Shown piece after piece: positions 3,436 to 19,001 of a DNA stretch of 64,000 nucleotides (positions within the stretch are counted from its first letter, which is position 1; each line of letters opens with the position of its first letter). The notes under the pieces were generated by a model. It was given only the letters and a program-made list of their open reading frames with translations, was not told the DNA's origin and did no database searches. A program made the position numbers and the translations under genes. Source of the DNA: Candidatus Poribacteria bacterium (GTDB taxonomy: Bacteria; Poribacteria; WGA-4E; WGA-3G); the NCBI GenBank assembly GCA_012271015.1, contig JAAXHD010000056.1, positions 10,115 through 74,114 on the forward strand, read 5' to 3'.

Positions 3436-3457
3436 TTTTTTAATTATTATCTCTGGG

Positions 3458-3480
3458 CGTTGCCTCCGTTGTCGGCAACG
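3458..3480 (-). repeat. AACAACGG-loop hairpin, copy 1
   Basis: Minus-sense CGTTGCC-GACAACGGA-GGCAACG, 22 nt upstream of the nuoH ATG. Confidence 0.8.
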
Positions 3481-3540
3481 ATCTAAAATCGTTAAGAAAC
3501 CTCTTTCAGGTTATGAAAGGTTTATTAACAATGTGGAGTC

Positions 3541-3563
3541 CTGCCCTAACAACGGCAGGGCAG
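3541..3563 (+). repeat. AACAACGG-loop hairpin, copy 2
   Basis: CTGCCCT-AACAACGGC-AGGGCAG, located between the nuoG stop and nuoH. Confidence 0.8.
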
Positions 3564-3577
3564 CGTAACAACAATCG

Positions 3578-5230
3578 TCAGAGGCTTAATTTGATACCCA
3601 TGTCCCCAATTTTCTGATGTGTTGCGTCAGCATAGCCTGGGACATTCTCGGCAATTGCCAAGGCAATCTCACCAGCAAAGTGATAGTTCATCTCACCGCC
3701 CAACTGTTTGGCAAGTTGTTGCATAATTTCCCAATCCACACGCGCTTCACCCGGTGGATCAATCGTCTTACGAATCCGTTGCACCCAACCTGTTGAGTTC
3801 GTGAAGGTGCCATCCTTCTCAGCGAAGGTGGTCCCCGGTAGCACGACATCTGCCAACTGCGTTACTTCTGAAGGCAAAACGTCTTGTACAATAAGGAAAT
3901 CAACACGCTCCAACGCCGCTTTTTCAGCATCTTCGAGAGGTCGTTCCGGTCCACCGCTGACGAGATAAACGACTTTTGCGTCCGATACCTTCTCCCAAAG
4001 TGCCTCACCCTCCAAAACGACGTTGCCATTCCCAGAACCGAGTATTGTTCGGGCACCCGCCGCGTTTGGATTCTTGTCGGCTTCAATTGTAAACTGCGGG
4101 AACTTGTGTTCTTCACCAGGCAGTTGCCCAAAGAGTCCCAACTGCGTTGTTTTCAGCATATCATGCGCCAACTGCTGTAAAATGTAGTTGTCTTCATTGG
4201 TTCCCTGTGCAGAACCGATAACAACAATGTCCTCAGCTTCTATTTCCGACACGTTTTCTGTAATTACCGCTAAGGCATCTGCCCAATGTGTTGGCGTGAG
4301 TTCGTCATCAACCCGTTTGAGTGGAAGTTGGAGTCGGTCATCGCTGTTGACATAGTGGTAACCGAGCCGACCATCGTCACACATCCAATGCTGGTTAATG
4401 TCTTCATGGAAGCGCGGCTTAAGCCTGTACACACCATCGGCTTTATATTCTACGGTAATGTTGCAACCGACACTACATCCTGAGCAGACGCTGTTCGCTT
4501 TCTCCAAAAACCACGGACGAGACTTGAACAAGAAATCTTTGCTGATCAATGCCCCAACTGGACAGATATCAACGACATTTCCTGCCAATTTGTTATCCAG
4601 TACTTGCAAAGGGACGCCTTCGTGACTCCGCGGGATATCGATTTCGTCATGGGAGCCGCGGTGAACCAAGCCTAATTCGCCCGTCCCGGAGACCTCATCA
4701 GCGAATCGGATACATCGGGTGCAGACGACGCAGCGCGTTGCGTAAAGCAGTACGTCGGGTCCCAAGTCTTTCTTAGGCGGGACATTTTTTATTTCAAGAT
4801 AGCGACTCTTATCATATCCATGTCGATGTGAATAGTCTTGCAAATCGCACTCGCCAGCCTGATCACAGACAGGACAATCAAGTGGGTGATGCACAAGCAG
4901 AAATTCCAATATATCCGCTCGTGCCTTTTTGACGCGCTCGCTATCTGTGCGGACAATAAAGTCGTACTTTCCGTCAAGTTTCCTATCGGGTGGTGCTGTT
5001 CTCAGCACCGTAGTGCACCCAGTTGCGAGTTGCCGATCAGGGACGATTGCACCAGCAGGTGGAAAGAAAACATGCGGCTCAACGAGACACATTCTGCAAT
5101 TCGCTGGGCGGGTCAATCCTGGGTGATAACAGTAGTGAGGGACTTCAATGCCGTGTTGTCTTGCCGCCTCGACTACATTCGTTCCATCTTCAACCTCTAT
5201 CTCAAGGTCATTCAGTTTAACAAATGCCAT
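3578..5230 (-). CDS. nuoG: NADH-quinone oxidoreductase subunit G, short form (550 aa)
   Basis: N-terminal 2Fe-2S (CYHPGLTRPANCRMCLV). His/Cys 4Fe-4S (HPLDCPVCDQAGECDLQ). CVVCTRCIRF...CPVGAL cluster. A truncated molybdopterin-like domain follows. Confidence 0.88.
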   Translation of the reverse strand: MAFVKLNDLEIEVEDGTNVVEAARQHGIEVPHYCYHPGLTRPANCRMCLVEPHVFFPPAGAIVPDRQLATGCTTVLRTAPPDRKLDGKYDFIVRTDSERVKKARADILEFLLVHHPLDCPVCDQAGECDLQDYSHRHGYDKSRYLEIKNVPPKKDLGPDVLLYATRCVVCTRCIRFADEVSGTGELGLVHRGSHDEIDIPRSHEGVPLQVLDNKLAGNVVDICPVGALISKDFLFKSRPWFLEKANSVCSGCSVGCNITVEYKADGVYRLKPRFHEDINQHWMCDDGRLGYHYVNSDDRLQLPLKRVDDELTPTHWADALAVITENVSEIEAEDIVVIGSAQGTNEDNYILQQLAHDMLKTTQLGLFGQLPGEEHKFPQFTIEADKNPNAAGARTILGSGNGNVVLEGEALWEKVSDAKVVYLVSGGPERPLEDAEKAALERVDFLIVQDVLPSEVTQLADVVLPGTTFAEKDGTFTNSTGWVQRIRKTIDPPGEARVDWEIMQQLAKQLGGEMNYHFAGEIALAIAENVPGYADATHQKIGDMGIKLSL

Positions 5231-5244
5231 TTTTTTACTTTCCT

Positions 5245-5264
5245 TTTTCTAATTTTCCTTACGG
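5245..5264 (-). promoter_or_regulatory. Leader-box variant upstream of nuoG (left arm of an inverted pair)
   Basis: Minus-sense CCGTAAGGAAAATTAGAAAA. It is complementary to 5462-5482 (18/20 matches plus a 1-nt bulge). Confidence 0.55.
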
Positions 5265-5395
5265 AGAAACAACATGGGTGTTTTGCTTGGGTGTTTCCCC
5301 AGAACTATCCGCTGCCTTTCCTTAAATCCGCTCTCCATCTCATTACGAACTACGGTTTTTGGTTTTATCTTTAACGCCTGTAACTGAAAACGGTA

Positions 5396-5416
5396 GCTTG
5401 CAACAACGGCGCAAGC
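5396..5416 (+). repeat. AACAACGG-loop hairpin, copy 3
   Basis: GCTTGC-AACAACGGC-GCAAGC, in the nuoF-nuoG spacer. Confidence 0.8.
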
Positions 5417-5452
5417 GGGTCTACGTAAAGGCACGCTATTCATCAAACCGAA

Positions 5453-5482
5453 CTGACCGAACCGCAAGGAACAATTAAAAAA
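5453..5482 (+). repeat. Leader-box copy in inverted orientation, directly after the nuoF stop
   Basis: CTGACCGAACCGCAAGGAACAATTAAAAAA on the plus strand. Compare the trkA and nuoK leaders. Confidence 0.6.
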
Positions 5483-5483
5483 C

Positions 5484-6959
5484 CTACAGGTCAGCGAACT
5501 CTTTCGGAACAAACCGCTGTTGATACGCGTAATTTTCCTCCGGTGGGACGGTCGCCTCGGCAACAGGCAGCGTGACCAGTTTACCTTCTCGGATGGCGGC
5601 TTCAAATTCGGGACGGAATTTGCGCATATAACTCACGGCGGGCCAGGAAACTGCAATGCCAAAGACACAAATCGTATTCCACGTCATGGTATCCACATTC
5701 GCAATGTTATTGGCAACACTTTCCAGCAAATCTAAATCTTCGTAGATATCTTCTGTCTCACCCGTATCGCCCCATCTACCGTTTTCAGCAACACCAAATT
5801 TGGGACGGGTCATCGTGCTTTTCCGTCCGTTTCCGTCGGCGATACGTTGGACAATATCCCGGACCCACGGAGTTCCCCAGCGGCACGGCGTGCACTGTCC
5901 ACAAGACTCGTGCGCGTAGAATTTCATGATATTGAGTAAGCAATCGACGATATTCCGTGTCTCGTTCATGACAATGATGCCACCGGAACCAAGCATCGAT
6001 TTTGCGAGCGTGAGTGAGGTAAAATCAAGCCGCGTATCCAACTCATAATGCGTTAGAATCGGTGCGGAACTACCACCAGGGATAACCGCTTTCACCTCTT
6101 CACCGCGCAACCCTCCAGCGACTTCAATAAGCTCTGAACAAGTCAAACCCAGATCAAGCTCATAGACACCGGGTTCGTTAACATCACCACTAATGCAATA
6201 GAGTTTTGTGCCAGTGTTGGGATCGGGTGTCGGCGGATCAGATCGCGTATCGGCATACGTAGGTCCCATTTGGGTGTACCACTCCACCCCGTTGCCAACG
6301 ATAAAAGGCAGATTGCATAAGGTCTCCACATTCTGCACTACAGTCGGTTTTCCAAACACACCTTCGACAGCAGGGAATGGAGGTTTGTTCCGAGGTTGCC
6401 CGCGTTTGCCCTCCAGCGATTCAATGAGCCCTGTCTCTTCACCACAGATATAAGCACCGGCTCCTGGATGTGAATAGATGTCAATGTTGAGTCCTGTACC
6501 ACGGATGTCTTTGCCGAGATAGCCTTGTTCGTAAGCCTCTTTGATAGCGGCATCCAACATCTGTTTCCCAAGTGTGAATTCCCCGCGGATGTAGACATAA
6601 GTCGTCTCAATGCCCATCGCGTAACAGCAAATTAGGATACCTTCAATTAAGAGGTGTGGATTCTTTTCCAAAACGTAGCGATTACTGAACGTCCCCGGCT
6701 CACTTTCGTCGGCGTTGCAACAGAGATAACATGGCTTTATATCTCTTGGAACGAAACTCCATTTCAAGCCTGTCGAAAATCCGGCACCACCTCTACCCTT
6801 CAACCCGGAATCCATCACCATTTTCGCAATATCATCTGGTTGGTATTCCGTAATTGCCTTTTCAAAACGCGTGTAGCCATCGTATTGCCGAAAGACATCG
6901 AACGTGTTAATATCAGGCACATCCAGATGCTCGTAGAGAATTCGTCTTTCTTCTATCAT
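5484..6959 (-). CDS. nuoF: NADH-quinone oxidoreductase subunit F
   Basis: GLKGRGGAGFSTGLKWSF (FMN/NADH site). ESCGQCTPCRWG (4Fe-4S). At 491 aa it carries an extra segment near the C-terminus. Confidence 0.93.
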   Translation of the reverse strand: MIEERRILYEHLDVPDINTFDVFRQYDGYTRFEKAITEYQPDDIAKMVMDSGLKGRGGAGFSTGLKWSFVPRDIKPCYLCCNADESEPGTFSNRYVLEKNPHLLIEGILICCYAMGIETTYVYIRGEFTLGKQMLDAAIKEAYEQGYLGKDIRGTGLNIDIYSHPGAGAYICGEETGLIESLEGKRGQPRNKPPFPAVEGVFGKPTVVQNVETLCNLPFIVGNGVEWYTQMGPTYADTRSDPPTPDPNTGTKLYCISGDVNEPGVYELDLGLTCSELIEVAGGLRGEEVKAVIPGGSSAPILTHYELDTRLDFTSLTLAKSMLGSGGIIVMNETRNIVDCLLNIMKFYAHESCGQCTPCRWGTPWVRDIVQRIADGNGRKSTMTRPKFGVAENGRWGDTGETEDIYEDLDLLESVANNIANVDTMTWNTICVFGIAVSWPAVSYMRKFRPEFEAAIREGKLVTLPVAEATVPPEENYAYQQRFVPKEFADL

Positions 6960-6969
6960 ACTATCTCCT

Positions 6970-7488
6970 CTACAAATTATCTATGATTTCATCAACCTTT
7001 TCTGGGGTTAAATTTTTATGCAAATCATCGTTCACCATGATAACAGGAGCGACATCGCAAGAAGCAAGACATTCCACTTTCATGAGCGTGAACTTACCAT
7101 CAGCAGTTGTACCCTTCGCGAGATTTGTTTCAGAAGCGACATCCGTGTCCAACTTCGCCTTAAGATGATCCAAAACGATCTTACAGTCCCGTAAGGCACA
7201 AGGAAGGGTGTGGCATATCCGAATGACGTACTCTCCTACCGGCTCTTCAAAGAACATCGGATAGAAGGTAACGACATCTTTGACCTTCATCACAGAAACC
7301 TCGAGTTGCTCTGCGACATACTTCATGACAGCGGGCGTAATGTAACCTGCCTGCCTTTGGGCGAGATGAAGGGTTGGCAACATCGCGGCTTCTTTAACGG
7401 GATACCGCCCTATTAACGCGTTGAATTCCCTTTGGTTTTCTTCGTTAAACGCGAAAGGCGTTTCGATTTGAATGAGTTCATCTGACAT
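6970..7488 (-). CDS. nuoE: NADH-quinone oxidoreductase subunit E
   Basis: Thioredoxin-like 2Fe-2S subunit, with LPTLHLAQRQAGYIT, ICHTLPCALRDC and ECLASCDVAPVIMVND. Confidence 0.9.
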   Translation of the reverse strand: MSDELIQIETPFAFNEENQREFNALIGRYPVKEAAMLPTLHLAQRQAGYITPAVMKYVAEQLEVSVMKVKDVVTFYPMFFEEPVGEYVIRICHTLPCALRDCKIVLDHLKAKLDTDVASETNLAKGTTADGKFTLMKVECLASCDVAPVIMVNDDLHKNLTPEKVDEIIDNL

Positions 7489-7607
7489 CTACGTTTTCCT
7501 TTGCTACGAATGCCTCCTGTACTTTGCGAGGCAGTTCAACCAAAATGAAATAAGATTCCGGATACAAGTAATCTTCCTGATACTCATTAACAACTCGCAA
7601 ATAGCCT

Positions 7608-7907
7608 TCACGAGCTCGCTTCTTCATCAGATAGAATTTGGTAGAATTTTCGCTTCTCTATGTCTTCACAACCGTTGTTTTCGATGCAAAGTGCAAATAC
7701 AGATAAACACCCTTCAATTGCTTCATAAATATTTTCAAGTAATTCTTCAAAAGTGTCCCCTTGTGTAGCACAACCGACGATTGATGGCACTTCCGCCCAA
7801 TATCCGCCTTCTTCAGCTTTATGGATAACAACTTTTAGTTTCATGGAATTTAAGTCCACTCCCTTCAAAATTACTTTATCTGTCTTTGTGAAAACTTCCA
7901 AAATCAA
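7608..7907 (-). CDS. HicB-like (UPF0150) antitoxin-domain protein, possibly degenerate
   Basis: [47 protein letters not shown] is a typical HicB N-domain. The track start is TTG at 7907, which overlaps the VOC stop as TTGA. An alternative ATG lies at 7844. The C-terminus is atypical. Confidence 0.55.
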
Positions 7908-8245
7908 TAGTTGCCGTAAAACTGAATACGGTTGCCTTCTGGGTCGCGGATATCGAAAATGGCATGCCCATCGTTGTTCTCAAGTTTCCGTAATCGCTTC
8001 CCTTTCGATTTCAGTTGCTGATGAACAGCACTCACGCTTTCAACGTGAAACATCAGTTTTTGTCTCCCTTCGTTGGGTTTGCTGGCACTATGGAGACATA
8101 ACGTGCAAGCACCTGCATTAAAACGGAAAAACCGATGTTCTGGAAACGGCTGGTCTTCGTCCGGCACTAATCCGACAACGTCCCTATAAAATGCAATGAC
8201 AGCCTTCATGTTTTTGACGAAAAGCATAACGCCTTTGAGTTCCAT
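7904..8245 (-). CDS. Glyoxalase/bleomycin-resistance (VOC) family protein
   Basis: 113 aa, [26 protein letters not shown]...[16 protein letters not shown], the VOC beta-alpha-beta-beta-beta pattern. Confidence 0.7.
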
Positions 8246-8282
8246 TGAATCCTCCTAAAACAGACAGCAGGATCTGACAAAG

Positions 8283-9479
8283 CTACCGATCTAACTCCCC
8301 GGCAATAACATTCAGACTTCCCAAAACAGCCACGGTATCGGAAACCATTCCGCCCTCCAACATGTGCGGTAGTGCTTGGAAGTGTAAGAAACTCGGCGGA
8401 CGGATACGGATGCGATAAGCGGTTCCGCTGCCATCACTGACGATATAAAATCCGAGTTCGCCGTTCGGTGACTCGGTGGCACAATAATGTTCACCCTTTG
8501 GCGTCTCCACGCCGTGCCCGTCCATAACAACCTTAAAATGATGAATCAAGCCTTCAATATGCCCATAAGCATCGGACTTATTTGGCATCGTAATCTTGTT
8601 ATCTTCGAGGTTGACCGGTCCGTCAGGCATATTATCCAGGACTTGGGTAACGATACCACAACTCTGAATCATCTCTTCCATCCGGACAAGGTAGCGGTCG
8701 TAGGCATCGCCGTTGGTTCCAACTGGCACCTCAAATGTGACTTCATCGTAACTGGAGTAGGGTTCAGCCTTGCGTATATCATGCGACACACCGGTGGCTC
8801 GGAGACAGGGACCTGTTAATCCGTAGCTTATAGCATCATCAGGTGAAATGGGTCCGACATCTTTCGTCCGATCCATCCAGATACGGTTCCGCGTGAGGAG
8901 TGTATGCGTCTCCTTGAGTGCCTTTGGGAAGTTGCTGACGAATTGGTGTACATCTTCTTCACACCCAGCATAGAGGTCGCGAAGCACACCGCCAATACGC
9001 GTGTAACTGGTCGTCAATCGTGCTCCAGTCGTCTTTTCAAAGATGCTATACAACTTTTCGCGTTCGCGGAAACTATAGAGGAATACAGAGAACGCTCCTA
9101 AGTCCAAGGCAGCAGTTCCCAACCATAGTAAGTGATCTGCGACTCGTGAGAGCTCCGCCATCAACATACGGATGTATTGACACCGCTTTGGGACCTCAAT
9201 GTCGAGCAACTGCTCGACAGCAAGCACATAACCGAAATTGTTAGACAACGGCGATAGATAGTTCATCCGGTCGGTTACAACAATATACTGGTTGTAATCC
9301 AAATGTTCACCGAGCTTCTCAAATCCGGTATGCAGGTAGCCGGCATGTGGTGTTGCCTTCAAAACGGATTCACCATCAAGCTCCAACACGATACGAAGAG
9401 TACCGTGAGTTGCCGGATGTTGCGGACCGAAGCTGAGAACCATCTTCTCACCTGTGGCGCGTTCCTGCCCACCTTGCAT
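8283..9479 (-). CDS. nuoD: NADH-quinone oxidoreductase subunit D
   Basis: FGPQHPATHGTLRIVLELDGE and C-terminal IAGELDR. SD AAAGGAG lies 6 nt upstream of the ATG. Confidence 0.95.
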   Translation of the reverse strand: MQGGQERATGEKMVLSFGPQHPATHGTLRIVLELDGESVLKATPHAGYLHTGFEKLGEHLDYNQYIVVTDRMNYLSPLSNNFGYVLAVEQLLDIEVPKRCQYIRMLMAELSRVADHLLWLGTAALDLGAFSVFLYSFREREKLYSIFEKTTGARLTTSYTRIGGVLRDLYAGCEEDVHQFVSNFPKALKETHTLLTRNRIWMDRTKDVGPISPDDAISYGLTGPCLRATGVSHDIRKAEPYSSYDEVTFEVPVGTNGDAYDRYLVRMEEMIQSCGIVTQVLDNMPDGPVNLEDNKITMPNKSDAYGHIEGLIHHFKVVMDGHGVETPKGEHYCATESPNGELGFYIVSDGSGTAYRIRIRPPSFLHFQALPHMLEGGMVSDTVAVLGSLNVIAGELDR

Positions 9480-9499
9480 AGCATACTCCTTTTTTTAGA

Positions 9500-9585
9500 G
9501 GTATAAGTTGTAGGTGGTAGGTTATAAGTTAAGAGGTTTTCGCTTAATCAGCCTCTCTTATAACTTGTAACTTATAACTTATACC
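9500..9585. repeat. Long imperfect palindrome built from TATAAGTT/AACTTATA octamers in the nuoC-nuoD spacer
   Basis: Outer arms GGTATAAGTT (9500-9509) and AACTTATACC (9576-9585) are perfect. Inner TTATAAGTTAAGAGG pairs with CCTCTCTTATAACTT. There are at least four octamer copies. Confidence 0.75.
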
Positions 9586-9594
9586 CCCTTTGTT

Positions 9595-10143
9595 TTAGGC
9601 ATTCTGTTTATCAAAATTAAAGCTTTCGCGCTCGCCACGTCCGCGAAGCGGATAATCCTTTTGAAGTGGGTGTCCCTCAAAATCGTCTGGCATCAAGATC
9701 CTGCGAAGGTCGGGGTGCCCCTCAAAATTAATACCGAACATGTCATAAGTTTCACGCTCCAACCAGTTCGCACCTTTCCACAATGCAGTCACAGATGGAA
9801 TACTTAGGTCGTTTTCATGGACCGGCACCTTTACTCGGAGGCGACACTGTCCCTGATAGGAATAGAGCTGGTAGACCACCATAAACCTTGCATAATCAAA
9901 CTGCATCAATTCGGATTCCATCCGAGAATTGTCGACAGCAGTAACATCAACGAGAAAGGTATAGGCGAGTTCAGAATCTGTTTTCAGATACTCCAACACG
10001 GCGTAAACCTGTTCTTTACGTACAACAACGACAACAGTACCACGTGTTTCGTCCTGTGCCAAAAGAGCATCTGCGTGATGTTCCTCTAATTTTTCCAGTA
10101 CAATAGGTTTCGGCTGTTCTTCAACTTCTTTCTCTTCATTCAT
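9595..10143 (-). CDS. nuoC: NADH-quinone oxidoreductase subunit C
   Basis: [29 protein letters not shown] is the NuoC/30-kDa subunit signature. Confidence 0.9.
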
Positions 10144-10670
10144 ACGACTGTCTCTACTCCCTTAGGTGAAGCACCACTGGTGATTTTCTGTTGCACCTGT
10201 AGCACCGCATCAATGAGATCTTCGGGTCGCGGTGGGCATCCGGGTATGTAGACATCTACGGGGATGAACTGATCGACGCCTTGAATAAGCGTATAGGTAT
10301 CAAACACGCCACCACAGGAAGCACATGCCCCCATCGAAATGACCCACTTCGGATCCGGCATCTGGTCATAGATACGTTTGAGTACCGGCATCATTTTGAT
10401 GGAAATCCTACCAGAAACGATGAGCAGATCGGATTGGCGGGGTGAAAAGCGGATCGCTTCAGAACCGAACCGAGAGAGGTCGAATTTGGAAGCCAAGGTC
10501 GCCATCATCTCAATTGCACAACATGCTGTCCCGAACGGCATGGGCCACAACGAATTTTTCCGTCCCCAGTTGACGACCTTATCAATAGTCGTTGTGATAA
10601 TATTCCCATCCGTTTCTCCGACCCCTTGTCCAACAAAATCTAATCCCATGTTAAGCCTCCTTTCTTCCAA
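10140..10670 (-). CDS. nuoB: NADH-quinone oxidoreductase subunit B
   Basis: [25 protein letters not shown] and IPGCPPRPE (N2 cluster ligands). The start may instead be the ATG at 10649. Confidence 0.93.
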
Positions 10671-11008
10671 GCGTAAATATAGCCGAGAAGAAGAATGCCG
10701 ATAAACACCAGCATTTCAATTAAAATAAACAAACCACTCGTCTCAGAGAATTTCTTGAAGACCACTGCCCAAGGGTAGAGGAACACCACTTCGATATCGA
10801 AGATGATAAAGAGCATCGCGATGAGGTCAAACCGAATTGTAAATCGTTGCCTCGCATCGCCGATTGGGCGGACACCAGATTCGTAAACGGAGAGTTTGAC
10901 GCGGTTCGGGCGTTTGGGTCCAAGAATATGGGTTAGGGCGAGATTAATACCCGCAAAGAGGACTGCGAAGAGTCCTAACAACAAGATTGGAAGATAATCT
11001 ATTAACAT
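10640..11008 (-). CDS. nuoA: NADH-quinone oxidoreductase subunit A
   Basis: 122-aa three-TM protein containing [39 protein letters not shown]. It is the first gene of the nuo cluster. Confidence 0.9.
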
Positions 11009-11286
11009 TGTTTCTAATCTATTTGGTTTCCCTCACACATCTTAATATTGGATTGCGAACTTCACCAAAGTTACAGGTTAATGCAAACTCCGAAACACAA
11101 TTTTCTAATATGCTTAATAGTTTCTCATATTTTAAAAATATTGTCAAGTTTTTTTTAAAAAATATAAAGTATTTACAAATTCTCCAGTGCCCATTCGTTT
11201 GGTTTACTAAAACCTTAATTTTGAAGTTAAGATCGTCCCCATAACTCCAGATTCAAACTGGAGCAGATAGCCTGTTATTCCTATGT

Positions 11287-12042: not shown

Positions 12043-12141
12043 CTCCTATCTCCTTTATAGTAAAATCTACAATATACTTATACGTCCTATTGTAGCATAA
12101 ACTAACAGTTCGTGCTACATTGTAATTTCAGAACGATGGAC

Positions 12142-12786
12142 TCACGGTGATAAACGTGTCATTTCCCATGTTCCATCGGGCTGTAGCGTATAACACAGCC
12201 TATCATGAAGGCGGTTTGGACATCCTTGCCAAAACTCAAATAGATTCGGCACAAGTCGGTATCCACCCCAATGGGGTGGACGTGGTATGTCATCCGCGGA
12301 ATATGTCTGTTCTGCCCGTTGGAACGCCTCTGTGAGATGTTCCCGTCCGCCAATGACAAGGCTCTGGCGTTCTGTCCACACAGCGAGTTGACTGCTTAGA
12401 GGACGGCTGGCAAAATAAGCATCGGATTCTTCTGCTGTCATCTTTTCAACAGTGCCAGTACTGCGGACCTGCCGATCGAGTTCACGCCAATAGAATACCA
12501 ACGCGGCATTCGGATTCTCAGCAAGCTCCATCCCCTTCTGGCTCTCATAATCGGTATAGAAACAGAAACCTCTCGCATCGAAGCCTCTGAGGACTACCAT
12601 TCGAGCGGAAGGAATACCTTGTGGTGTTGCCGTTGCTAAGGTCATCGCATCCGGCAGATCAAGTTTGGCGGCAATCGCATCAGAGAACCACCGGTCAAAT
12701 TGGTCAAACGGATCGGACGCAGCATTCTTTTCAAGCAGATGCCCACTATAGGCTCTATATTCTCTGCGTAGTTTTTCGGTGTCCAT
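12142..12786 (-). CDS. pdxH: Pyridoxamine 5'-phosphate oxidase
   Basis: RMVVLRGFDARGFCFYTDYESQKG, FASRPLSSQLAVW, and HWGGYRLVPNLFEFWQGCPNRLHDRL...RLSP. Confidence 0.9.
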   Translation of the reverse strand: MDTEKLRREYRAYSGHLLEKNAASDPFDQFDRWFSDAIAAKLDLPDAMTLATATPQGIPSARMVVLRGFDARGFCFYTDYESQKGMELAENPNAALVFYWRELDRQVRSTGTVEKMTAEESDAYFASRPLSSQLAVWTERQSLVIGGREHLTEAFQRAEQTYSADDIPRPPHWGGYRLVPNLFEFWQGCPNRLHDRLCYTLQPDGTWEMTRLSP

Positions 12787-12789
12787 AGT

Positions 12790-14295
12790 TTACCTTTTCC
12801 AGAAATTCGGTGAAAAGAGGATAAGCACGGTATAAAGTTCTAAACGTCCCAGTAACATACAGAAGGACAGCACATATTTTCCAACTGTATGAATATGGGC
12901 ATAGTTATCGGTCGGTCCGACACTACCGAGACCGGGACCGATGTTTCCCATCGTAGCGATTGTTGCCCCAGCAGCACTCACAAGGTCAAGTCCCAAAGTT
13001 GCCATAATGCACGTTACAATCGCAAAAATCCCGATGAAAAAGAAAAAGAATCCGAGGACATTCGTCATGACTTCGGGTGGAACGACCCGATCGTTAACGC
13101 GAATCGGAAGCACGGCATGCGGAAAGAGGAGGCGTTTAATTTCAGCACCGCTCTGCTTGATGAGAAGTAGAAATCGCACCTGCTTCATACCGCCACCAGT
13201 GGAACCTGCACATCCCCCGTAGAACATAAGCGTGACCAAAATGAATATGGAAAGGGCGGGCCAGCGTTCATAGTCAGCAGTCCCATAGCCGGTGGTCGTA
13301 ATAATAGACATGACCTGAAACGTTGCATAGCGTAGCGATGTCCACATCGAATCATAGGGGATATCCCCATCGACCCGAAATCTAATCGTATTCCATGAGA
13401 TTACGGTAATGCTCACTGCGATAACAATACAGTAGAATTTGAATTCCGTATCTTGGAGATAAGCTTTGACATTGCCCCGGAGGGCTCGATAGTGAAGTGC
13501 GAAATTGGTCCCGGCGAGGAACATGAAGCAACTGATTACCATGTCGATATAAACACTATTGTAGTGCCCGATGCTCTGGTTCTTCGTAGAAAACCCACCG
13601 GTTGCCATCGTGCCAAAGGTGTGGCAGAGGGCATCAAAAAGCGACATTCCGCCGAGCATTAGTAGCACCGTTTCTAAAAAAGAGAGAAGAAGATAAACGC
13701 CCCAGAGAAGTTTAGCGGTCTGGGCAATACGGGGGGTGAGTCGATCGGTCTGCGGTCCTGGAGCCTCAGCGCGAAAAAGCTGCATACCCCCGATGCCGAG
13801 CATTGGAAGAATCGCGACAGCAAGCACAACAATTCCCATCCCACCAAGCCAGTGGGAAAGACTCCGCCAGAAGAGTACGGCGTGTGAAAGATGTTCAATT
13901 TCGGTGAGGACAGTGGCACCGGTCGTCGAGAACCCCGCCATAGACTCAAAATAACAGAAAGAAAACTCCACCCACGAGGAGCGCCCCTCACTGTGAAACA
14001 CATCTGCAAATATGTAGGGGAGCGAACCAAAAAGAGCGACTGTCACCCATCCCAACGCAACAACTGCGAAGCCTTCGCGTATGCCGAGCTCCTCCTGCCG
14101 CGCGCGAATACTTAAACGGAGAGCTAAACCAACGACTACGGTAAATATTGCCGAGATGACAAATGCTGTCAAATTACTCTCGGTTTCACCCGCTCTTCCC
14201 TGATAATTGATAGCCACTCCCAAGGGAAGCAGCATCGTTCCCGCGAGACAAATAAGTAAATTACCAAGCGTATAAGCGATTAATTTAAGACTCAT
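12790..14295 (-). CDS. trkH: Trk-type potassium uptake protein, membrane subunit
   Basis: 501-aa polytopic protein with repeated pore-loop motifs (GFSTTGAT, TGGFST, TTTGYGT, GGCAGSTGGGMK). Confidence 0.88.
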   Translation of the reverse strand: MSLKLIAYTLGNLLICLAGTMLLPLGVAINYQGRAGETESNLTAFVISAIFTVVVGLALRLSIRARQEELGIREGFAVVALGWVTVALFGSLPYIFADVFHSEGRSSWVEFSFCYFESMAGFSTTGATVLTEIEHLSHAVLFWRSLSHWLGGMGIVVLAVAILPMLGIGGMQLFRAEAPGPQTDRLTPRIAQTAKLLWGVYLLLSFLETVLLMLGGMSLFDALCHTFGTMATGGFSTKNQSIGHYNSVYIDMVISCFMFLAGTNFALHYRALRGNVKAYLQDTEFKFYCIVIAVSITVISWNTIRFRVDGDIPYDSMWTSLRYATFQVMSIITTTGYGTADYERWPALSIFILVTLMFYGGCAGSTGGGMKQVRFLLLIKQSGAEIKRLLFPHAVLPIRVNDRVVPPEVMTNVLGFFFFFIGIFAIVTCIMATLGLDLVSAAGATIATMGNIGPGLGSVGPTDNYAHIHTVGKYVLSFCMLLGRLELYTVLILFSPNFWKR

Positions 14296-14436
14296 TTTAA
14301 TAGTTATCGGTTGTCAGTTGTCAGTGAAGAGGTCTTGACATATCAATCCACGACCTCTCGGAGTCATCCAAATTAGGGTAGATTGTTACAAAGGCACCTC
14401 TTTACCGTTAACCGATACCTGAAAGCTGACAACCAT

Positions 14437-15843
14437 TTAGATTCGGCGTTCGGCGAACAAGTCTTCGACAATTGGAATCGCGCCTGGCATACTAAAGACG
14501 ATCACACGATCTGCGGGTTGGATAACAGACTGACCGGTTGGAATAATGAGTTTTTCCCGTCGAATAACGGCACCGATAAAGGCATTTTCTGGGAATTTCG
14601 TTTTGAAAGAGATGAGTTCCTTGTGGACAATTTTCGCGTTGACACCAGCGACAATCTCAATAACTTCCGCATCTATTCCGTGGAGCGAAGCAACAGAAAC
14701 TATATTGCCACGCCGGATGAGCCGCAGGATATTGCTAACAACAGTAAGATGTCGGCTGACGGCACCATCAAGTCTCGGAATACGTGCCAACAAGGGGAGA
14801 TAACGGGGTCGCTGAACGAGTGCGAGTACGCGCTGGGCACCGTTCTCTTTGGCAGTCATACATGCCATAATATCGTTTTCATCGTCTCCAGTAACGGAGA
14901 CGAATCCGTTAACACCATCTATACCCGCTTCTTCAAGGAGTCTGTATTGGAGATAGTCTCCCTGTAAAACGGTGGTGCGTTTTAGCGTTCGGGATGCCAG
15001 TTGTGCTTGCGTTTCATCGGCTTCAATGAGTTTGACGTTGGTGTCGTTTTCTTCAAGCACACGGGCAAGCCCAATGCCGATAGGACTTGCGCCAACAATG
15101 ATAACGCGGTCAAGTCGCTGATTAAACGTGATACCACTAATACGTAACAATTGTTCCACTGCCAACGCACTGCCGATGACAAAGACTTCGTCCCCTTGTT
15201 GCAAAGCATTTGTCCCTCTCGGAATGATAATATGCCTGCTACCATTACTGATCGGGTTGCCGTTACTGGAGGTTTCTCGACGACTAATAGCAGCAAAACG
15301 GATATCAGTGAGCAGGCCACTCGCGTCTAACTCCGCGAGCGATTTTCCGATTAAAGGGTTTGACTGTCTGGCGCGAAAGGAAACAAGCTGGACTTTTCCG
15401 TCTTCAAACTCGACAATCTCCCGCGCCTCAGGTATCTGCAAGAGTCGGACGAATTCAGCAATACAGTGCTGCTCTGGATTCACCAGAAGATCAATGCCGA
15501 AATCTTTAGGGGTCAGTCCGCTTTCCGTGGAGAAATAGTCAGGATTTGAGACACGTGCAATTTTTGTGATGACACTGTACCTGCTGGCTATCTGACAAGC
15601 GAGCATATTAATCTCATCGCTATTTGTAACAGCAATGAGGAGTTCAGCTTCGTCAATTCCAGCGGTTTTGAGAAGGCGCGGCGATGCCCCGGATCCATGC
15701 AGCGTTTGTAAGTCCAATTGTTCATTAACCCGGTCGCAGGCGGCATTGGACTCATCAATGAGAACAACATCGTTATCTTGGACAGTGAGAAGTTTGGCGA
15801 TATGGAATCCTACCTCTCCTGCACCTATAATTATGGCTTTCAT
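14437..15843 (-). CDS. trkA: Trk system NAD-binding subunit (two RCK N/C modules)
   Basis: MKAIIIGAGEVGFHIAKLL, and a second Rossmann motif VIIVGASPIGIGLARVL. Confidence 0.9.
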   Translation of the reverse strand: MKAIIIGAGEVGFHIAKLLTVQDNDVVLIDESNAACDRVNEQLDLQTLHGSGASPRLLKTAGIDEAELLIAVTNSDEINMLACQIASRYSVITKIARVSNPDYFSTESGLTPKDFGIDLLVNPEQHCIAEFVRLLQIPEAREIVEFEDGKVQLVSFRARQSNPLIGKSLAELDASGLLTDIRFAAISRRETSSNGNPISNGSRHIIIPRGTNALQQGDEVFVIGSALAVEQLLRISGITFNQRLDRVIIVGASPIGIGLARVLEENDTNVKLIEADETQAQLASRTLKRTTVLQGDYLQYRLLEEAGIDGVNGFVSVTGDDENDIMACMTAKENGAQRVLALVQRPRYLPLLARIPRLDGAVSRHLTVVSNILRLIRRGNIVSVASLHGIDAEVIEIVAGVNAKIVHKELISFKTKFPENAFIGAVIRREKLIIPTGQSVIQPADRVIVFSMPGAIPIVEDLFAERRI

Positions 15844-15872
15844 ATTTTAATTTTACCTTGCGGTTTGGTCAG
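15844..15872 (-). promoter_or_regulatory. Conserved leader box abutting the trkA start
   Basis: Minus-sense CTGACCAAACCGCAAGGTAAAATTAAAAT-ATG. Confidence 0.6.
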
Positions 15873-15908
15873 GTGGATTGGGGACATCAAGCACATCTCC
15901 ATAGATCC

Positions 15909-15929
15909 GCCTGCGCCGTTGTTGCAGGC
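15909..15929 (-). repeat. AACAACGG-loop hairpin, copy 4
   Basis: Minus-sense GCCTGC-AACAACGGC-GCAGGC, 65 nt upstream of the trkA ATG. Confidence 0.8.
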
Positions 15930-16084
15930 TACTATTTCGGTTCAATGAAAGCACTACTAAACTTTGGATAATTTTAAGGAAGATACACCTTAGGTTTCCC
16001 CGCTGGGCTAAAGAGGTCGTTGATGAACAGGAAACCAACGGGCTCTTATGCTACAATTGTCCAAACTATAGTAAGTCCTAATGT

Positions 16085-18976
16085 TTAATATTCGTCAAGT
16101 GGTGGGCAAGCACACATAAGGTTTCTATCCCCATAAACCTCGTTGATACGTGCGACTGCGGGCCAAAATTTAGCCTCGCGGACCCAAGGTTTTGGAAACG
16201 CTGCTTTTTCACGTGAATAGGAGTACCTCCACTCGGATTGTGTAACCACTTCCACAGTGTGGGGGGCATTCTTTAATATATTGTCTACCTGATCAGCAAC
16301 GCCCGCTTCAATCTCCGCTATCTCTTCACGTATTGAAATGAGAGCGTCACAGAACCGTTCCAACTCCGCCTTGGATTCGCTCTCTGTCGGTTCAATCATC
16401 ATCGTCCCCAGTACGGGCCAGGAGACAGTCGGTGCGTGGAATCCATAGTCCATCAGTCGCTTTGCGACATCGGTCACATCTATATCGGCACTTTTCTTGA
16501 AAGCCCGCAAATCAATGATGCATTCGTGAGCAACCAAGCCGTTCTTTCCAGTATAAAGGACAGGATAATGAGGGGCAAGCCGTTTGGCAATATAGTTAGC
16601 GTTCAGGATCGCAACTTCTGTCGCGGTTGTAAGCCCTTGCGTTCCCATCATCGCAATATATGCCCAAGAGATAGGCAGAATTCCTGGACTCCCCCACGGG
16701 GCAGCAGACACGGCACCAATTCCAGCATCACCCCCAACAGGGACAAGCGGATGCGTGGGCAAGAAATCTGTGAGATGCGCCTTGACACCAATAGGTCCCA
16801 TCCCTGGGCCACCGCCACCGTGTGGGATACAGAAAGTTTTGTGAAGATTCAAATGGCATACATCCGCTCCAATATCTGCGGGCTGTCCGATTCCGACAAG
16901 GGCATTCAGATTCGCCCCGTCCATATAGACCTGTCCACCGGATTGATGAACAATATCACAAATCTCTCGAATTTTCTCTTCAAAGACCCCGTGTGTTGAA
17001 GGGTATGTAATCATAGCAGCGGCAAGATTTTGGCGATGCTCGTCAGCTTTCAATCGGAGATCTTCGAGGTCAATATTCCCATCGGTATCGCACGCGACAA
17101 CGACGACTTGCATACCCGCCATCACAGCACTCGCAGGATTTGTGCCGTGGGCGGAGGTCGGGATCAAACAGACATTCCGATGTGCTTCATTACGGCTTTC
17201 ATGGTATTTTCGAATGACCAATAGTCCTGCATATTCGCCCTGTGAACCCGCATTTGGTTGCAGTGAAATACCACTATAACCGGTTATCTCAGCTAACCAC
17301 GTTTCCAACTGTGAAAATAGAGTCTGATAGCCTTCTGCTTGCTCTCGTGGTGCGAAGGGGTGCAGTCCGCCAAATTCGTTCCACGTCACCGGGACCATCT
17401 CCGCTGTAGCGTTGAGTTTCATGGTACAAGAACCGAGCGGTATCATGGCATTCACAAGGGAAAGATCTTTGGTTTGAAGTTTGTGGATATAGCGAAGCAT
17501 CTCGGTTTCAGAATGGTAACTATTGAACACAGGATGCGTCAGGTAGGAACTCTTCCGTTGCAAATCTATTGGAATTTCACGTGTAGGGACGCTTTCCAAA
17601 CTCGTCCGCGCACCAAATATCCGCAGGATTTCTTCGACATCAGCAGATGTTGTGGTTTCGTCTAAAGAGATACCGATATGTGTTGAATCAATCGTCCGAA
17701 GATTGATTTGTTTCGCCTGTGCAGATTCGAGCAACGCCTCCACTGTTCCTGATGAGACACCAACGGAGAGGGTATCAAAACAGGGGAATTCCCCTGTTGC
17801 AAACCCAAGTTTTTCAAGTCCTGCACGTAATGTGCAAGTGAGTGAATGGACGCGTTCAGCGATGTGCTTAAGTCCTGTGGGTCCGTGGTAGACGGCGTAC
17901 ATCCCTGCCATCACAGCGAGCAGGACCTGCGCGGTGCATATATTGCTCGTCGCCTTTTCACGCCGAATATGTTGCTCCCGCGTTTGGAGTGCCAAGCGGA
18001 TCGCGGGTTTGCCGGTCGCATCTTGAGAAACACCCGCAATCCGTCCGGGAATACTACGTTTAAGCTCTTCATGTGTGGAAAGAAAAGCTGCGTGGGGCCC
18101 CCCGTATCCGAGCGGCACACCAAACCGCTGTGCGCTACCGATAGCGATGTCAGCACCAAACTCACTGGGGGGATGTAAGAGCGTTAGTGCCAACAGGTCC
18201 GTCGCAGTAACGAATAAACCGTCAGCGGCATGCACTTGTTCAGCGAACTCACTGTAATCGTAAATCGCTCCATCTGTAGCCGGATATTGCACGAGGGCAC
18301 CTAAGATCGGTGTGTCAAAATTGGCATCGCGATGGTCACCGATTTGTAATTCAATGCCGAGCGGTTCAGCGCGTGTTTGTAGGACAGCAATTGTTTGTGG
18401 ATGACAGGTTTCTGACACAAAAAAGTTTCGACTGATCTTCTGCGGTACATTCGCAACACACATCCCCATCGCCTCAGCGGCGGCTGTTGCTTCATCCAGA
18501 AGAGAAGCATTCGCGACAGGTAAGCCGGTTAAATCAATCACCATCGTTTGGAAGTTAAGCAATGCTTCCAAGCGTCCCTGTGAAATCTCGGCTTGATAGG
18601 GTGTGTATTGGGTGTACCAACCCGGATTCTCCAGAATGTTTCGCTGGATGACGGGGGGAACAAAGCAATTATAGTATCCCATTCCAATAAAAGAGCGAAA
18701 GACCTGGTTTTGCGCAGCAAGTTTCTTTAGAGCGGCAAGCACCTCCGACTCTGACTTTGCAATATGGGCTTGCAAGCTACGCCCTGGGCCAGATGCATCA
18801 CCATCTAAACTGAAAGGGGAGGATATACGAATGTCCGTTGGTACAACATCTTCAACGAAATCAGCCATTGAAGAATAGCCGAGCGTTGACAACATCAATT
18901 CAATATCCTCTGGACGAGGACCGATGTGTCGATTTGCGAAGGTCACAGTTATCTTTCCTTGAAATAAAAATGCCAT
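16085..18976 (-). CDS. gcvP: Glycine dehydrogenase (decarboxylating), single-chain P protein
   Basis: FANRHIGP near the N-terminus and the PLP-site region [16 protein letters not shown]. The track start at 19030 is TTG. The ATG at 18976 places FANRHIGP at about the same distance from the N-terminus as in E. coli GcvP and leaves a hairpin-filled spacer. Confidence 0.9.
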
Positions 18977-18978
18977 AA

Positions 18979-19001
18979 GCAAGCCAACAACGGAGGCTTG
19001 C
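18979..19001 (+). repeat. AACAACGG-loop hairpin, copy 5
   Basis: GCAAGCC-AACAACGGA-GGCTTGC, 2 nt upstream of the preferred gcvP ATG (18976). Confidence 0.8.

Follow-up and report, generated by a model that had tools for sequence, protein, structure and literature searches.

What are the hairpins that recur between genes in this 64,000-nt stretch of a Candidatus Poribacteria MAG (the window), and what reads them? A preliminary description had proposed an intergenic family whose stems vary but stay complementary around a conserved 9-nt loop. We found all five of its examples at exactly the coordinates and on the strands given, with perfect stems of 6–7 bp and the loop RACAACGGM (class 1). The window holds eight RACAACGGM sites, five of them enclosed by a perfect stem of 6 bp or more; 100 first-order Markov simulations averaged 2.67 sites and never produced a hairpin, which places the family far beyond chance. 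Only 23 hairpins in the window combine a 9-nt loop with a stem of this length, and these five are among them; when all hairpins with such stems were counted over the window and nine related loci, the top loop 5-mers were ACAAC, GACAA, AACGG, CAACG and ACGGA. Location in spacers and occurrence in both orientations were also borne out: co-directional genes flank all five hairpins, two of which are sense and three antisense to these genes. As for the looser variants proposed earlier, 1174–1191 does form a hairpin, tagged by GTAG and belonging to a related leader element, but its loop is different (6 nt) and it was missed by the covariance model described below; 33881–33902 has a stem of only 2 bp, was not detected by the model and was rejected. 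Another candidate, 23279–23294, was rejected as well: its stem has 4 bp, it falls within a probable small ORF and the model did not detect it.

The hairpins had been treated as free-standing units. Instead, each is a module of a longer repeat whose end, at a gene boundary, is a ribosome-binding region:

3458..3480 (−): class-1 hairpin CGTTGCC-GACAACGGA-GGCAACG, right (sense) hairpin of a Type II doublet, 22 nt upstream of the nuoH ATG (3435); model score 33.2 bits, −10.2 kcal/mol.
3541..3563 (+): class-1 hairpin CTGCCCT-AACAACGGC-AGGGCAG, left hairpin of the Type II doublet, antisense to the operon, 14 nt past the nuoG stop (3578).
3436..3577 (−): entire nuoG-nuoH spacer, a Type II head-to-head palindromic doublet in the order left hairpin, ATTGTTAATAAACC, central hairpin (3497–3523), GGTTTCTTAACGATTTTAGAT, right hairpin, CCCAGAGATAATAATTAAAAAA, ATG; same architecture at L017 2915–3050, L017/L019 9872–9978 and L091 4982–5091.
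5388..5483 (+): Type I element, antisense to the nuo operon; GTAG 5393–5396, class-1 hairpin GCTTGC-AACAACGGC-GCAAGC (5396–5416), 67-nt tail ending CCGCAAGGAACAATTAAAAAA and abutting the nuoF stop (5484).
5231..5353 (−): Type I element, sense, upstream of nuoG; GTAG, class-2 hairpin GTTC-GTAATGAGATGGA-GAGC (5330–5350), GGAT, CCGTAAGGAAAATTAGAAAAAGGAAAGTAAAAAA, ATG; forms with 5388–5483 a head-to-head pair filling the nuoF-nuoG spacer.
15844..15932 (−): Type I element, sense, upstream of trkA; GTAG 15932–15929, class-1 hairpin GCCTGC-AACAACGGC-GCAGGC (15909–15929), GGATCTATGG, CCACCTGACCAAACCGCAAGGTAAAATTAAAAT, ATG (15843).
18979..19066 (+): antisense, degenerate Type I element that occupies most of the gcvH-gcvP spacer; class-1 hairpin GCAAGCC-AACAACGGA-GGCTTGC (18979–19001), GGATCT, 65-nt tail ending GCGCATGGATAAAAAG at the gcvH stop (19067); gcvP most likely starts at a GTG near 18947, after AAGGAAAG.
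1511..1661 (−): Type I element, sense, upstream of nuoK; class-2 loop split by a ~39-nt insertion with a 10-bp hairpin (1623–1648); also bears a GTTTTTTGCTGGGGTGTTTC module (about 1580–1599); compare L016 6176–6289.
1110..1194 (−): Type I-like leader upstream of nuoL; GTAG-GCATA-CTCCGT-TATGCC, ~67 nt, GGCAAGGATAAAAT, ATG; loop neither class 1 nor class 2, undetected by model R1.
59078..59162 (−): Type I-like leader; class-2-like hairpin GCAC-GGAATGAAATGGA-GTGT (59142–59162), tail end CCGCAAGGAATAATTAAAAT adjoining the ATG (59077); part of a 5' UTR that follows a 12/12 sigma-70 promoter match (59230–59258).
10140..10143 (−): empty site, the ATGA overlap of the nuoB stop and nuoC start, at which L017 has a 163-nt Type II doublet.

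The unit comprises a 5' hairpin (perfect stem of 4–8 bp; loop RACAACGGM or, in sister units, GWAAYGWARTGGA) and a tail of ~22 or ~65 nt whose end is a Shine-Dalgarno-like, A-rich translation-initiation region abutting the gene boundary. Type I elements (~95 nt) run GTAG, hairpin, CGGAT, variable middle and then AACCGCAAGGAAAAATTAAAAA adjoining the ATG; Type II elements (~125–165 nt) are head-to-head palindromic pairs. Units occur singly or as inverted pairs (dimer spacing 27–60 nt) that fill whole intercistronic spacers. A 93-nt repeat pair connects 5388–5480 with 15845–15937, and in an alignment of 27 copies the end blocks were conserved, the middle was variable and no conserved structure was present besides the short hairpin. 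Of 18 Type I copies that had not been selected by it, 14 have GTAG immediately 5' of the stem (the rest have GTAA, GCAG or ATAG); it is missing from three of the five window hairpins (3458, 3541 and 18979) and all Type II–V hairpins. The single loop class first proposed proved incomplete, as a second class, GWAAYGWARTGGA (class 2), occupies the same contexts as class 1.

The family is limited to one clade of sponge-symbiont Poribacteria. Covariance model matches at E<1e-3 numbered 17, all within the window and its nine closest relatives (L011–L019), with none in 15 more distant Poribacteria loci (L020–L034) or 56 loci of other phyla. The element had not been recognized as a described one; comparison with Rfam gave no matching family, viral contigs contained no match to the motif, and no publication describing the family was found in the literature searched. 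A metagenome scan yielded 23 distinct Type I contexts. The largest subfamily, at about 20 loci, combines the GTAG tag with a nearly constant stem, GCCTGC; thus, the view that the family is the opposite of REP elements holds in that loops are more conserved than stems, but was overstated.

Stem complementarity is maintained. Over 12 distinct copies the seven stem pairs were 96% paired, with changes on both sides in every pair, a statistic that is partly circular since copies were picked because they had stems. The metagenome scan pattern left three stem positions free and provided an unbiased check: all real elements were complementary there (CCT/AGG, TCT/AGA, CAC/GTG, or with a G-T wobble), and no chance match was (8 loci, 5 distinct sequences). 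The antisense hairpin at 5396 differs from its orthologue in L011 (8028) only by one compensated pair (GCTTGC vs GCCTGC), while the tails have strongly diverged; similarly, the antisense hairpin at 3541 and its L019 orthologue (9874) have the same stem and both keep a class-1 loop, GACAACGGA in L019, but differ in their flanks. The 7-nt loop core is invariant and stems differ at almost every position.

Comparison of filled and empty sites shows that the units insert. Seven relatives, including the window, have the ATGA overlap where L017 carries its nuoB-nuoC doublet; no clean target-site duplication was seen at the L017 site, where 11 nt were replaced. The nuoF-nuoG spacer measures 106–244 nt with elements vs 5–60 nt in several Poribacteria loci that are more distant. 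One 43-nt hairpin unit recurs without change at non-orthologous sites (upstream of nuoF in L016 and of nuoL in L018), and the orthologous nuoG-nuoH spacer has different family members in different genomes. An inserted element can provide the stop codon of the upstream gene and the leader of the downstream gene; the nuoF stop in L014 is apparently supplied by GTAG, although ORF calls put it ~75 nt upstream.

The best explanation, which we consider about an even prospect, is that these are new and unusual, clade-restricted GTAG-type REP/REPIN-like miniature interspersed repeats with hairpins as recognition modules. The earlier suggestion of a site recognized in single-stranded form, or a transposition substrate, fits the insertion, the identical copies at non-orthologous sites and the antisense copies that keep loop and pairing. 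A trans-acting HUH/Y1 enzyme of the TnpAREP (RAYT) type would read the folded single-stranded DNA hairpin in a strand-specific manner. Recognition would rest on the loop and a perfect stem, whatever the stem's bases, and this would account for the persistence of loop and pairing in copies of both orientations. Hairpin-templated (quasipalindrome) correction may help to keep complementarity perfect. In operon junctions, the survivors would be only those insertions that bring their own ribosome-binding site, which could account for the sense bias (about 45 of 55 independent copies, ~80%, are sense to the next gene). Inserted elements would be co-transcribed, and the two tails of paired units could pair, tying the upstream stop region to the downstream ribosome-binding site.

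Several observations point away from REPs: GTAG is missing from many hairpins, the conserved loops are long, the filled site lacks a clean target-site duplication, G-T wobbles exceed A-C only weakly on the motif strand, copies show the sense bias and a fixed distance to the start codon (13–26 or about 65 nt), and they directly adjoin Shine-Dalgarno-like sequences. The last three are features expected of an RNA-level element. The preliminary description had argued from the two orientations against an RNA motif; both orientations do occur, but given the ~80% sense copies and the fixed distances this exclusion does not hold. An RNA-level protein-binding role is a serious, if rather unlikely, rival to the REP-like reading. 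The mRNA hairpin loop would be a cis-regulatory operator through which either the ribosome or an RNA-binding protein acting as a global post-transcriptional regulator controls how the downstream cistron is translated or how stable it is; the module's spread would be secondary, and antisense copies would be by-products of palindromic pairs. Besides sense bias and spacing, with Type II/IV hairpins ending 3–4 nt before AGGAG or AAGGA, this agrees with the conservation of the single-stranded flanks GGAAAC and CCCAGR and the loop around a compensated stem, with G-T wobbles on the sense strand (about 8–9 G-T vs 4 A-C on the motif strand, a weak excess), with the AAYGG(A) common to both loop classes, and with the copy whose 5' UTR follows a perfect sigma-70 promoter match. 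However, the antisense copies keep loop and pairing while flanks diverge; four Type I copies occupy convergent spacers, where a leader would serve no gene; the genes downstream have mixed functions (nuo subunits, trkA, gcvP, an oxidoreductase); the commonest loop has GGC, not GGA, at its end and thus misfits CsrA-type ANGGA sites; and there is no conserved structure beyond the short hairpin.

It is improbable that the hairpins are purely structural mRNA punctuation that stabilizes cistron ends or marks processing sites, with the inverted tails of pairs forming a closing helix from upstream stop region to downstream ribosome-binding site (translational coupling) and the loop conserved only by shared descent or gene conversion, without any reader. 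REPs are known to stabilize mRNA (PMC3733652), antisense hairpins lie 8–14 nt past stop codons, and predicted folds pair the post-stop region with the downstream ribosome-binding/start region in nuoF-nuoG, nuoG-nuoH and L017 nuoB-nuoC (z-scores −2.4, −3.1 and −1.8), yet these z-scores are modest and any palindromic pair is expected to fold so; moreover, the invariant loop core among stems that vary nearly everywhere, the two discrete loop classes and the singletons without a partner tail are left unexplained. A double-stranded site for a sequence-specific DNA-binding protein or recombinase, with the core CAACGG/TAACGG within an inverted repeat, would suit both orientations and the retention of YAACGG in the variants AACTAACGG and AACCAACGG, but is very improbable: a dimeric binder would read the arms, which are the least conserved part and keep only complementarity, and stem G-T wobbles are meaningless in duplex DNA.

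Under the REP-like reading, the closest known kind is the GTAG-tagged REP/REPIN (BIME) elements mobilized by RAYT/TnpAREP (Di Nocera et al. 2013, PMC3733652; Corneloup et al. 2021, PMC8266576). Published GTAG families have complementary stem variants, large loops and inverted dimers (PMC3733652), and group-3 TnpAREP, which acts on one strand specifically, requires a perfect stem and particular bases in the loop while accepting changes of stem sequence (PMC8266576). The Poribacteria family shares with GTAG REPs the short perfect palindromes at many intergenic sites, the unpaired GTAG that adjoins the stem on its 5' side (Type I), a division into subfamilies whose stem variants stay complementary and include G-T pairs, the occurrence of both singletons and inverted dimers 20–100 bp apart, and placement between co-directional or convergent ORFs, where GTAG can provide a TAG stop codon; as in group-3 substrates, loop and perfect stem outweigh stem sequence. 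Unlike GTAG REPs, it has a long loop (9 or 13 nt, against 2–3 nt in most published REPs) that is the most conserved part, two discrete loop classes in the same contexts, many hairpins without GTAG (Types II–V), a hairpin fused to a 22- or 65-nt tail ending in a ribosome-binding region, and most copies upstream of a start codon rather than just past a stop codon; also, a crude motif regex identified no RAYT/Y1 transposase in ~0.9 Mb of Poribacteria sequence. To our knowledge, REPs have not been reported from this phylum.

Other systems are more distant. Like IS200/IS605-derived PATEs and the substrates of IS608/ISDra2 TnpA, the elements have hairpins 10–20 nt from their ends, which may likewise be recognized as folded single-stranded DNA through loop or unpaired bases, as well as conserved ends with a variable middle. 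However, both end hairpins of IS200/IS605 are on the same strand, whereas the paired hairpins here are inverted, and neither tnpA nor tnpB was seen. Origin hairpins of Rep (HUH) replicons, for example geminiviruses and circoviruses, have a variable stem and an invariant nonanucleotide loop, within which the enzyme recognizes and nicks the folded single strand. The invariant 9-nt loop and variable stems here resemble them by analogy only, as such origins occur once per replicon beside the rep gene and the Poribacteria hairpins as dozens to hundreds of chromosomal copies with no nearby rep gene. Neisseria Correia elements, enterobacterial ERIC/IRU and Rickettsia RPEs are co-transcribed MITE-like repeats with expression signals, whose conserved terminal inverted repeats are read as duplex DNA or whose mobilization is unknown; we know of none with a loop-conserved mini-hairpin and a ribosome-binding site replacing the native one. 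The Poribacteria elements would be like them in being small palindromes tolerated within transcription units, in changing or supplying the expression signals of their neighbors and in forming large RNA hairpins.

All five hairpins of the preliminary description were present in the window, with exact coordinates and strands, and each had a perfect stem of 6–7 bp closed by the nine-nucleotide loop RACAACGGM (class-1 loop). Two of them belong to one larger unit, a head-to-head pair that we designated the Type II doublet:

3436–3577: Type II doublet, filling the whole nuoG–nuoH spacer
3458–3480, minus strand: hairpin in the nuoG–nuoH spacer
3541–3563, plus strand: hairpin in the nuoG–nuoH spacer
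5396–5416, plus strand: hairpin in the nuoF–nuoG spacer
15909–15929, minus strand: hairpin before trkA
18979–19001, plus strand: hairpin in the gcvH–gcvP spacer

Fold energies of the corresponding RNA hairpins (motif strand) were −7 to −10.3 kcal/mol. RACAACGGM occurred at eight sites in the window, five of which had a perfect stem of at least 6 bp, whereas 100 first-order Markov simulations contained no hairpin and a mean of 2.67 sites. The window contained only 23 hairpins that combine a 9-nt loop with 6 bp or more of stem, including these five. When loop 5-mers were counted with no prior motif, using all hairpins of 6 bp or longer from the window and nine related loci, the commonest were ACAAC, GACAA, AACGG, CAACG and ACGGA. 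The feature is real and strongly non-random, and the hairpin family is undescribed. Two looser variants had also been proposed: the one at 33881–33902 has a stem of 2 bp and is not a family member, and the one at 1174–1191 is a related hairpin with a GTAG tag but has a different loop. A further candidate at 23279–23294 was rejected.

The hairpins are parts of larger repeat units. Type I (approximately 95 nt) starts with an A-rich flank, GTAG, the hairpin and CGGAT(C/A)TACGG, followed by a variable middle of approximately 35 nt, CAAAC and ...ACCGAACCGCAAGGAAAAATTAAAAA adjoining the ATG; two copies in the window, at 5388–5480(+) and 15845–15937(−), form a repeat pair of 93 nt. An alignment of 27 copies showed two conserved end blocks around the variable middle. 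Its consensus structure contained only the 5' hairpin and a 2-bp CC-GCAA-GG mini-hairpin (RNAalifold), and a larger conserved RNA structure was rejected. Type II is a palindromic pair, composed in order of an antisense left hairpin, ATTGTTAAnAAACC, a central hairpin, GGTTTnTTAACRATTTTAGAT, a sense right hairpin and YCCAGA..TAAT..TTAAAAAA, followed by ATG. It recurs in the nuoG–nuoH spacer of L017 and L019 (two of the nine closest relatives of the window, loci L011–L019) and between nuoB and nuoC of L017. In two further contexts, Types III and IV, this loop is located 13–26 nt before start codons. In the nuoF–nuoG spacer of the window, an antisense Type I element containing the hairpin at 5396 lies head-to-head with a sense Type I element before nuoG, and the 18979 hairpin is part of a degenerate antisense Type I element which fills most of the gcvH–gcvP spacer. 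A pseudoknot between 5' flank and loop was considered and is not general, since a CCGTT flank complementary to AACGG was found only in the Type IV copy of L011/L012.

Several copies carried additional insertions. The class-2 loop (described below) of the Type I leader element of nuoK (1511–1661) is split by approximately 39 nt, which include a perfect 10-bp hairpin, AAATTATGCC-ATTTAA-GGCATAATTT, at 1623–1648. Several Type I copies contain a module of approximately 22 nt, GTTTTTGCTGGGGYGTTTC, which separates the hairpin from GATCTACG (window ~1580–1599(−), L014 8104–8125, L016 ~6200 and L122 ~2510), and another module, CCAGGGGAAACACCCAAGCAAAAACACCC, was present at 5270–5300 of the window and in L107.

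The stems had been described as variable in sequence yet complementary, and in relatives of the window this loop was enclosed by additional stems (GTTTCTC, CCGATTTT, CGGGGTG and TGCCCT). All seven stem pairs covaried and 96% of cells were paired, in copies chosen for having stems. A cleaner test of pairing came from a metagenome scan that left three stem positions free. These positions were complementary in every real element (CCT/AGG, TCT/AGA, CAC/GTG or a G-T wobble) and in none of the chance matches (8 loci with 5 distinct sequences, in high-GC coding DNA). Wobble counts were also considered as an indicator of strand-specific folding, but the excess of G-T over A-C was too weak to decide.

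The same scaffolds carry a second, class-2 loop of 13 nt, GWAAYGWARTGGA, in approximately 19 distinct hairpins. Their stems were either six-base (CGTTGC, CACCGC, CACCGT, CATCGT, CTGTCC, CTGCGC and CATCAT) or four-base (GCCT, GCTC, GTTT, GCCC and GCTT), and their conserved flanks were GGAAAC and CCCAGR, or GTA and GGAT. For example, the stem and 3' flank of the window hairpin at 3458 (CGTTGC...GCAACG CCCAG) recur at L011 6439 and L012 6581, but with the other loop. Flanks and loop are thus constrained within one scaffold, whereas the stem can vary as long as it pairs. Further loop variants were AACTAACGGGC and AACCAACGGGC; the core common to all loops was AAYGG.

The minus strand of the window carries a nuo operon (nuoK/J/H/G/F/E/D...), trkH-trkA and gcvT-H-P. 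Every copy was intergenic, as had been noted, and was located in co-directional or convergent spacers. Both orientations indeed occurred, in unequal numbers: counting independent sites of both loop classes together, approximately 45 were sense and approximately 10 were antisense or in convergent spacers. Sense copies preceded the next start codon by 13–26 nt (Types II–IV) or 65–87 nt (Type I), and antisense copies were 8–14 nt or approximately 66 nt past the upstream stop codon, such that the tail reaches the gene boundary in either orientation. Inverted pairs had their GTAG (5') sides inward, 27–60 nt apart. A Type I-like leader at 59078–59162 precedes the gene at 57998–59077 and is part of its 5' UTR, as it lies approximately 70 nt downstream of a 12/12 match to a sigma-70 promoter (TTGACA-17-TATAAT, 59230–59258, minus strand). 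A promoter inside Type I was rejected because the best candidate matched at only 9/12 positions (CTGACC-17-TAAAAT) and would start transcription beyond the ATG. Intrinsic terminators were also rejected, as the hairpins have no T-run; the sole terminator-like call was the 15909 hairpin read on its reverse strand, where the tail is weak.

Comparison of orthologous spacers revealed insertion and turnover. In L017, a Type II doublet of 163 nt was present between nuoB and nuoC, a position at which L019 (the closest relative of L017), L011, L012, L014, L015, L018 and the window share an ATGA stop/start overlap. With this insertion, which took the place of 11 nt, nuoB gained a new C-terminus and stop codon and nuoC a new leader. 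The nuoF–nuoG spacer is 106–244 nt long with elements compared to 5–60 nt in several more distant Poribacteria loci, in some of which inserted genes occupy it. Members of the family differed between genomes in the orthologous nuoG–nuoH spacer, and an identical 43-nt unit was found upstream of nuoF in L016 and of nuoL in L018. Between the antisense copy at 5396 and its ortholog (L011 8028), the hairpins differ by one compensated pair and the tails have strongly diverged, implying that something preserves the loop and pairing even in an orientation that is not mRNA sense.

Two local flips were also seen: CGCAAGG in the antisense Type I tail (window 5462–5469) corresponds to its reverse complement, CCTTGCG, at the orthologous position of L011 (~7975), and the 18979 stem (GCAAGC/GCTTGC) equals the 5396 stem with its arms swapped. 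Hairpin-mediated template switching may account for both. A strain-level indel within the nuo cluster was found in L001, a contig of the same population from another sample (NuoH identical): L001 5264–5467, compared with window ~7900–8250, has approximately 328 extra nt between nuoE and a glyoxalase gene, including a HicB-like antitoxin ORF which the window lacks. In addition, a small ORF of approximately 140 aa, which encodes TEAEVRLEKRITE-type repeats and a signal or transmembrane segment, was present in the nuoF–nuoG spacer of L016, L020, L021, L026 and L027, where the window has repeat elements.

We further checked the occurrence of the family with a covariance model built on 12 distinct copies. 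In a search space of 1.59 Mb, 17 matches were obtained at E<1e-3, all in the window and L011–L019; more distant Poribacteria loci (15) and loci of other phyla (56) gave none. These 17 matches in approximately 235 kb (window and closest relatives) come from a sample centered on the nuo operon, and from this nuo-centered sample the copy number would extrapolate to hundreds per genome. Metagenome contigs contained 23 distinct Type I contexts. NuoH of the window shares 95% identity with proteins from MAGs of Candidatus Poribacteria. A phage or plasmid origin was rejected: three scans of viral contigs gave one chance match, with a non-complementary stem and 60% GC. At the gathering score, neither the 64-kb window nor the related loci (138 kb) matched any Rfam family; at E<=10, regions 3400–5500 and 15780–16000 matched only irrelevant eukaryotic RNA families, none overlapping a hairpin, and the window contained no tRNA or tmRNA. 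Identity with a 'Poribacteria-1' motif was also considered and rejected: the name did not occur in two Weinberg papers and supplements searched, and the Rfam scans hit no family on the elements.

GTAG-tagged REPs form a superfamily, dispersed over the genome in high copy number, with an unpaired GTAG (or GYAG/GTRG) tag on one side of the palindrome, stems of 6–13 bp, subfamilies with complementary stem variants, frequent G-T pairs and loops mostly of 2–3 nt, or 9–15 nt in some families; they occur as singletons and as inverted dimers 20–100 bp apart between co-directional or convergent ORFs, and the tag often provides a TAG stop codon (Di Nocera et al., PMC3733652). Given such stem variants (PMC3733652), the initial contrast of these elements as the opposite of REPs was overstated. 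Units of 21–25 nt with perfect stems of 5–8 bp correspond to the small palindromic stem-loop (20–40 bp) of REP type, and the elements are likewise extragenic and occur as singletons and inverted dimers. Type I is a good fit, with GTAG in 14 of the 18 copies that were not selected through GTAG and GTAA, GCAG or ATAG in the remainder. In L014, GTAG seemingly overlaps the nuoF stop codon, but ORF calls place that stop approximately 75 nt upstream. Types II–V have no GTAG tag, and their 5' flanks are TTTTAGAT, GGAAAC, CGAAAAC, CCGTTC, GGAGTC or CCATAA; copies without GTAG include three of the five in the window (3458, 3541 and 18979). Other differences from REPs are the long loop, which is the most conserved part, the two loop classes on shared scaffolds, the fusion of each hairpin to a tail with a ribosome-binding region, and the position of most copies near the downstream start, whereas typical REPs are near the upstream stop. 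We classified the elements as an unusual variant of REP-like interspersed repeats, in which the loop rather than the stem is conserved, and not as a new kind of element. Integron attC sites, which follow each cassette ORF, have extrahelical bases and an R''/R' core GTTRRRY, and are accompanied by an adjacent integrase, were rejected: the hairpins are located inside conserved nuo and gcv operons rather than cassette arrays, have perfect stems with no extrahelical bases, and have no GTTRRRY core.

Insertion, modularity, clade restriction and the conservation pattern of the family are all evident from these comparisons, and the most likely explanation, to which we give about an even chance, is a REP/REPIN-like family of miniature mobile elements. 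REPs are mobilized by Y1/HUH enzymes (RAYT/TnpAREP), and group-3 TnpAREP enzymes act on perfect palindromes, bind only a single strand, require specific loop bases and an intact stem, and tolerate changes in stem sequence (Corneloup et al., PMC8266576). A Y1/HUH enzyme would similarly recognize the loop and perfect stem of the Poribacteria hairpin in folded single-stranded DNA. The conservation of antisense copies and the weak G-T over A-C excess are the only indirect hints of strand-specific binding and cleavage, and the earlier idea of single-stranded recognition is plausible but unproven. In a REPtron, REPs flank the gene of their cognate RAYT/TnpAREP, a PF01797-like Y1/HUH transposase of the same genome. 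A crude regular-expression search for HUH and YxxNP motifs found no Y1/HUH transposase in the window, L001–L034 and L091–L124, a sample of <1 Mb in which a single-copy gene is not expected. An element with its own stop codon and ribosome-binding site would allow insertions to survive in operon junctions, and such survival would in turn produce the sense bias. Hairpin-templated (quasipalindrome) correction could keep the stems perfect without selection, but cannot account for loop conservation.

The main rival, that an RNA-binding protein or the ribosome reads the loop in mRNA, is distinctly less probable. Sense bias, fixed spacing and adjoining Shine-Dalgarno-like sequences argue for it, and conserved antisense and convergent-spacer copies argue against it. 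Moreover, a CsrA/RsmA-type ANGGA site was rejected because the commonest class-1 loop, which all Type I copies have, lacks GGA and terminates in ACGGC, although AUGGA or ACGGA forms the end of class-2 loops and of some class-1 loops; CsrA/RsmA sites also usually overlap the Shine-Dalgarno sequence, whereas these hairpins precede the ATG by 13–87 nt and are clear of that sequence. A purely structural role of the elements, in punctuation and coupling, is improbable. Folds of three doublet spacers, in which the region past the stop codon is predicted to pair with the downstream ribosome-binding site (z-scores −1.8 to −3.1), are consistent with it, but such folds are expected of any palindromic pair, and the loop is left unexplained.

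A further reading, which we regard as possible but rather unlikely, is that the elements are self-propagating 'junction cassettes', the loop-conserved hairpin, in both loop classes, serving as the operator of a putative loop-specific protein. Each miniature element would be able to colonize operon junctions because it would bring a stop codon, a hairpin, a Shine-Dalgarno-like sequence and an A-rich leader, and in the paired form an anti-RBS tail would restore translational coupling. The candidate protein would be either an HUH enzyme with long-loop recognition or an RNA-binding regulator, which would have captured 10–15% of the genes of the clade.

Little is known of genome dynamics in Poribacteria, which are uncultivated symbionts of sponges, and the present elements would be their first described family of interspersed repeats. 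Because each unit has a ribosome-binding region, an element can replace whole intercistronic spacers in the essential nuo operon with no visible breakage. Such markers are useful for strain typing, MAG assembly breaks and gene-start annotation; annotation is affected at the gcvP start and at the new nuoB C-terminus of L017. Should there be a cognate Y1 transposase, the family would add to the recognition modes known for TnpAREP enzymes, and if the loop is instead read in RNA, a large post-transcriptional regulon would be present in a candidate phylum.

Other repeats were also detected in the window. One example is a second palindromic family at 9487–9590 (nuoC–nuoD spacer; arms 9500–9528 and 9557–9585) and 14290–14440 (trkA–trkH spacer), which was also present in the nuoG–nuoH spacers of L011, L012, L014 and L021. 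Its arms consist of degenerate 6–8-nt tandem units (TTATAAG, CAGTTAT and GACAACT types) around a core, AAGAGGT...ACCTCTT, and it often starts directly past a stop codon. Another example involved an inverted repeat of 45 nt (41512–41556 and 41683–41727; 78% complementary, arms 126 nt apart) with the motif GCCTTGTGCTAATTG, which also flanks a segment in the L021 nuoG–nuoH spacer, suggesting a third small mobile element. In addition, we found an 87-nt tandem duplication (98% identical, 49049–49222) inside the ORF at 48850–50112, and a cluster of approximately 21-nt direct repeats (TTAACATCCGACTTAACGTCCGTAACATCCGAC) at 42108–42249.
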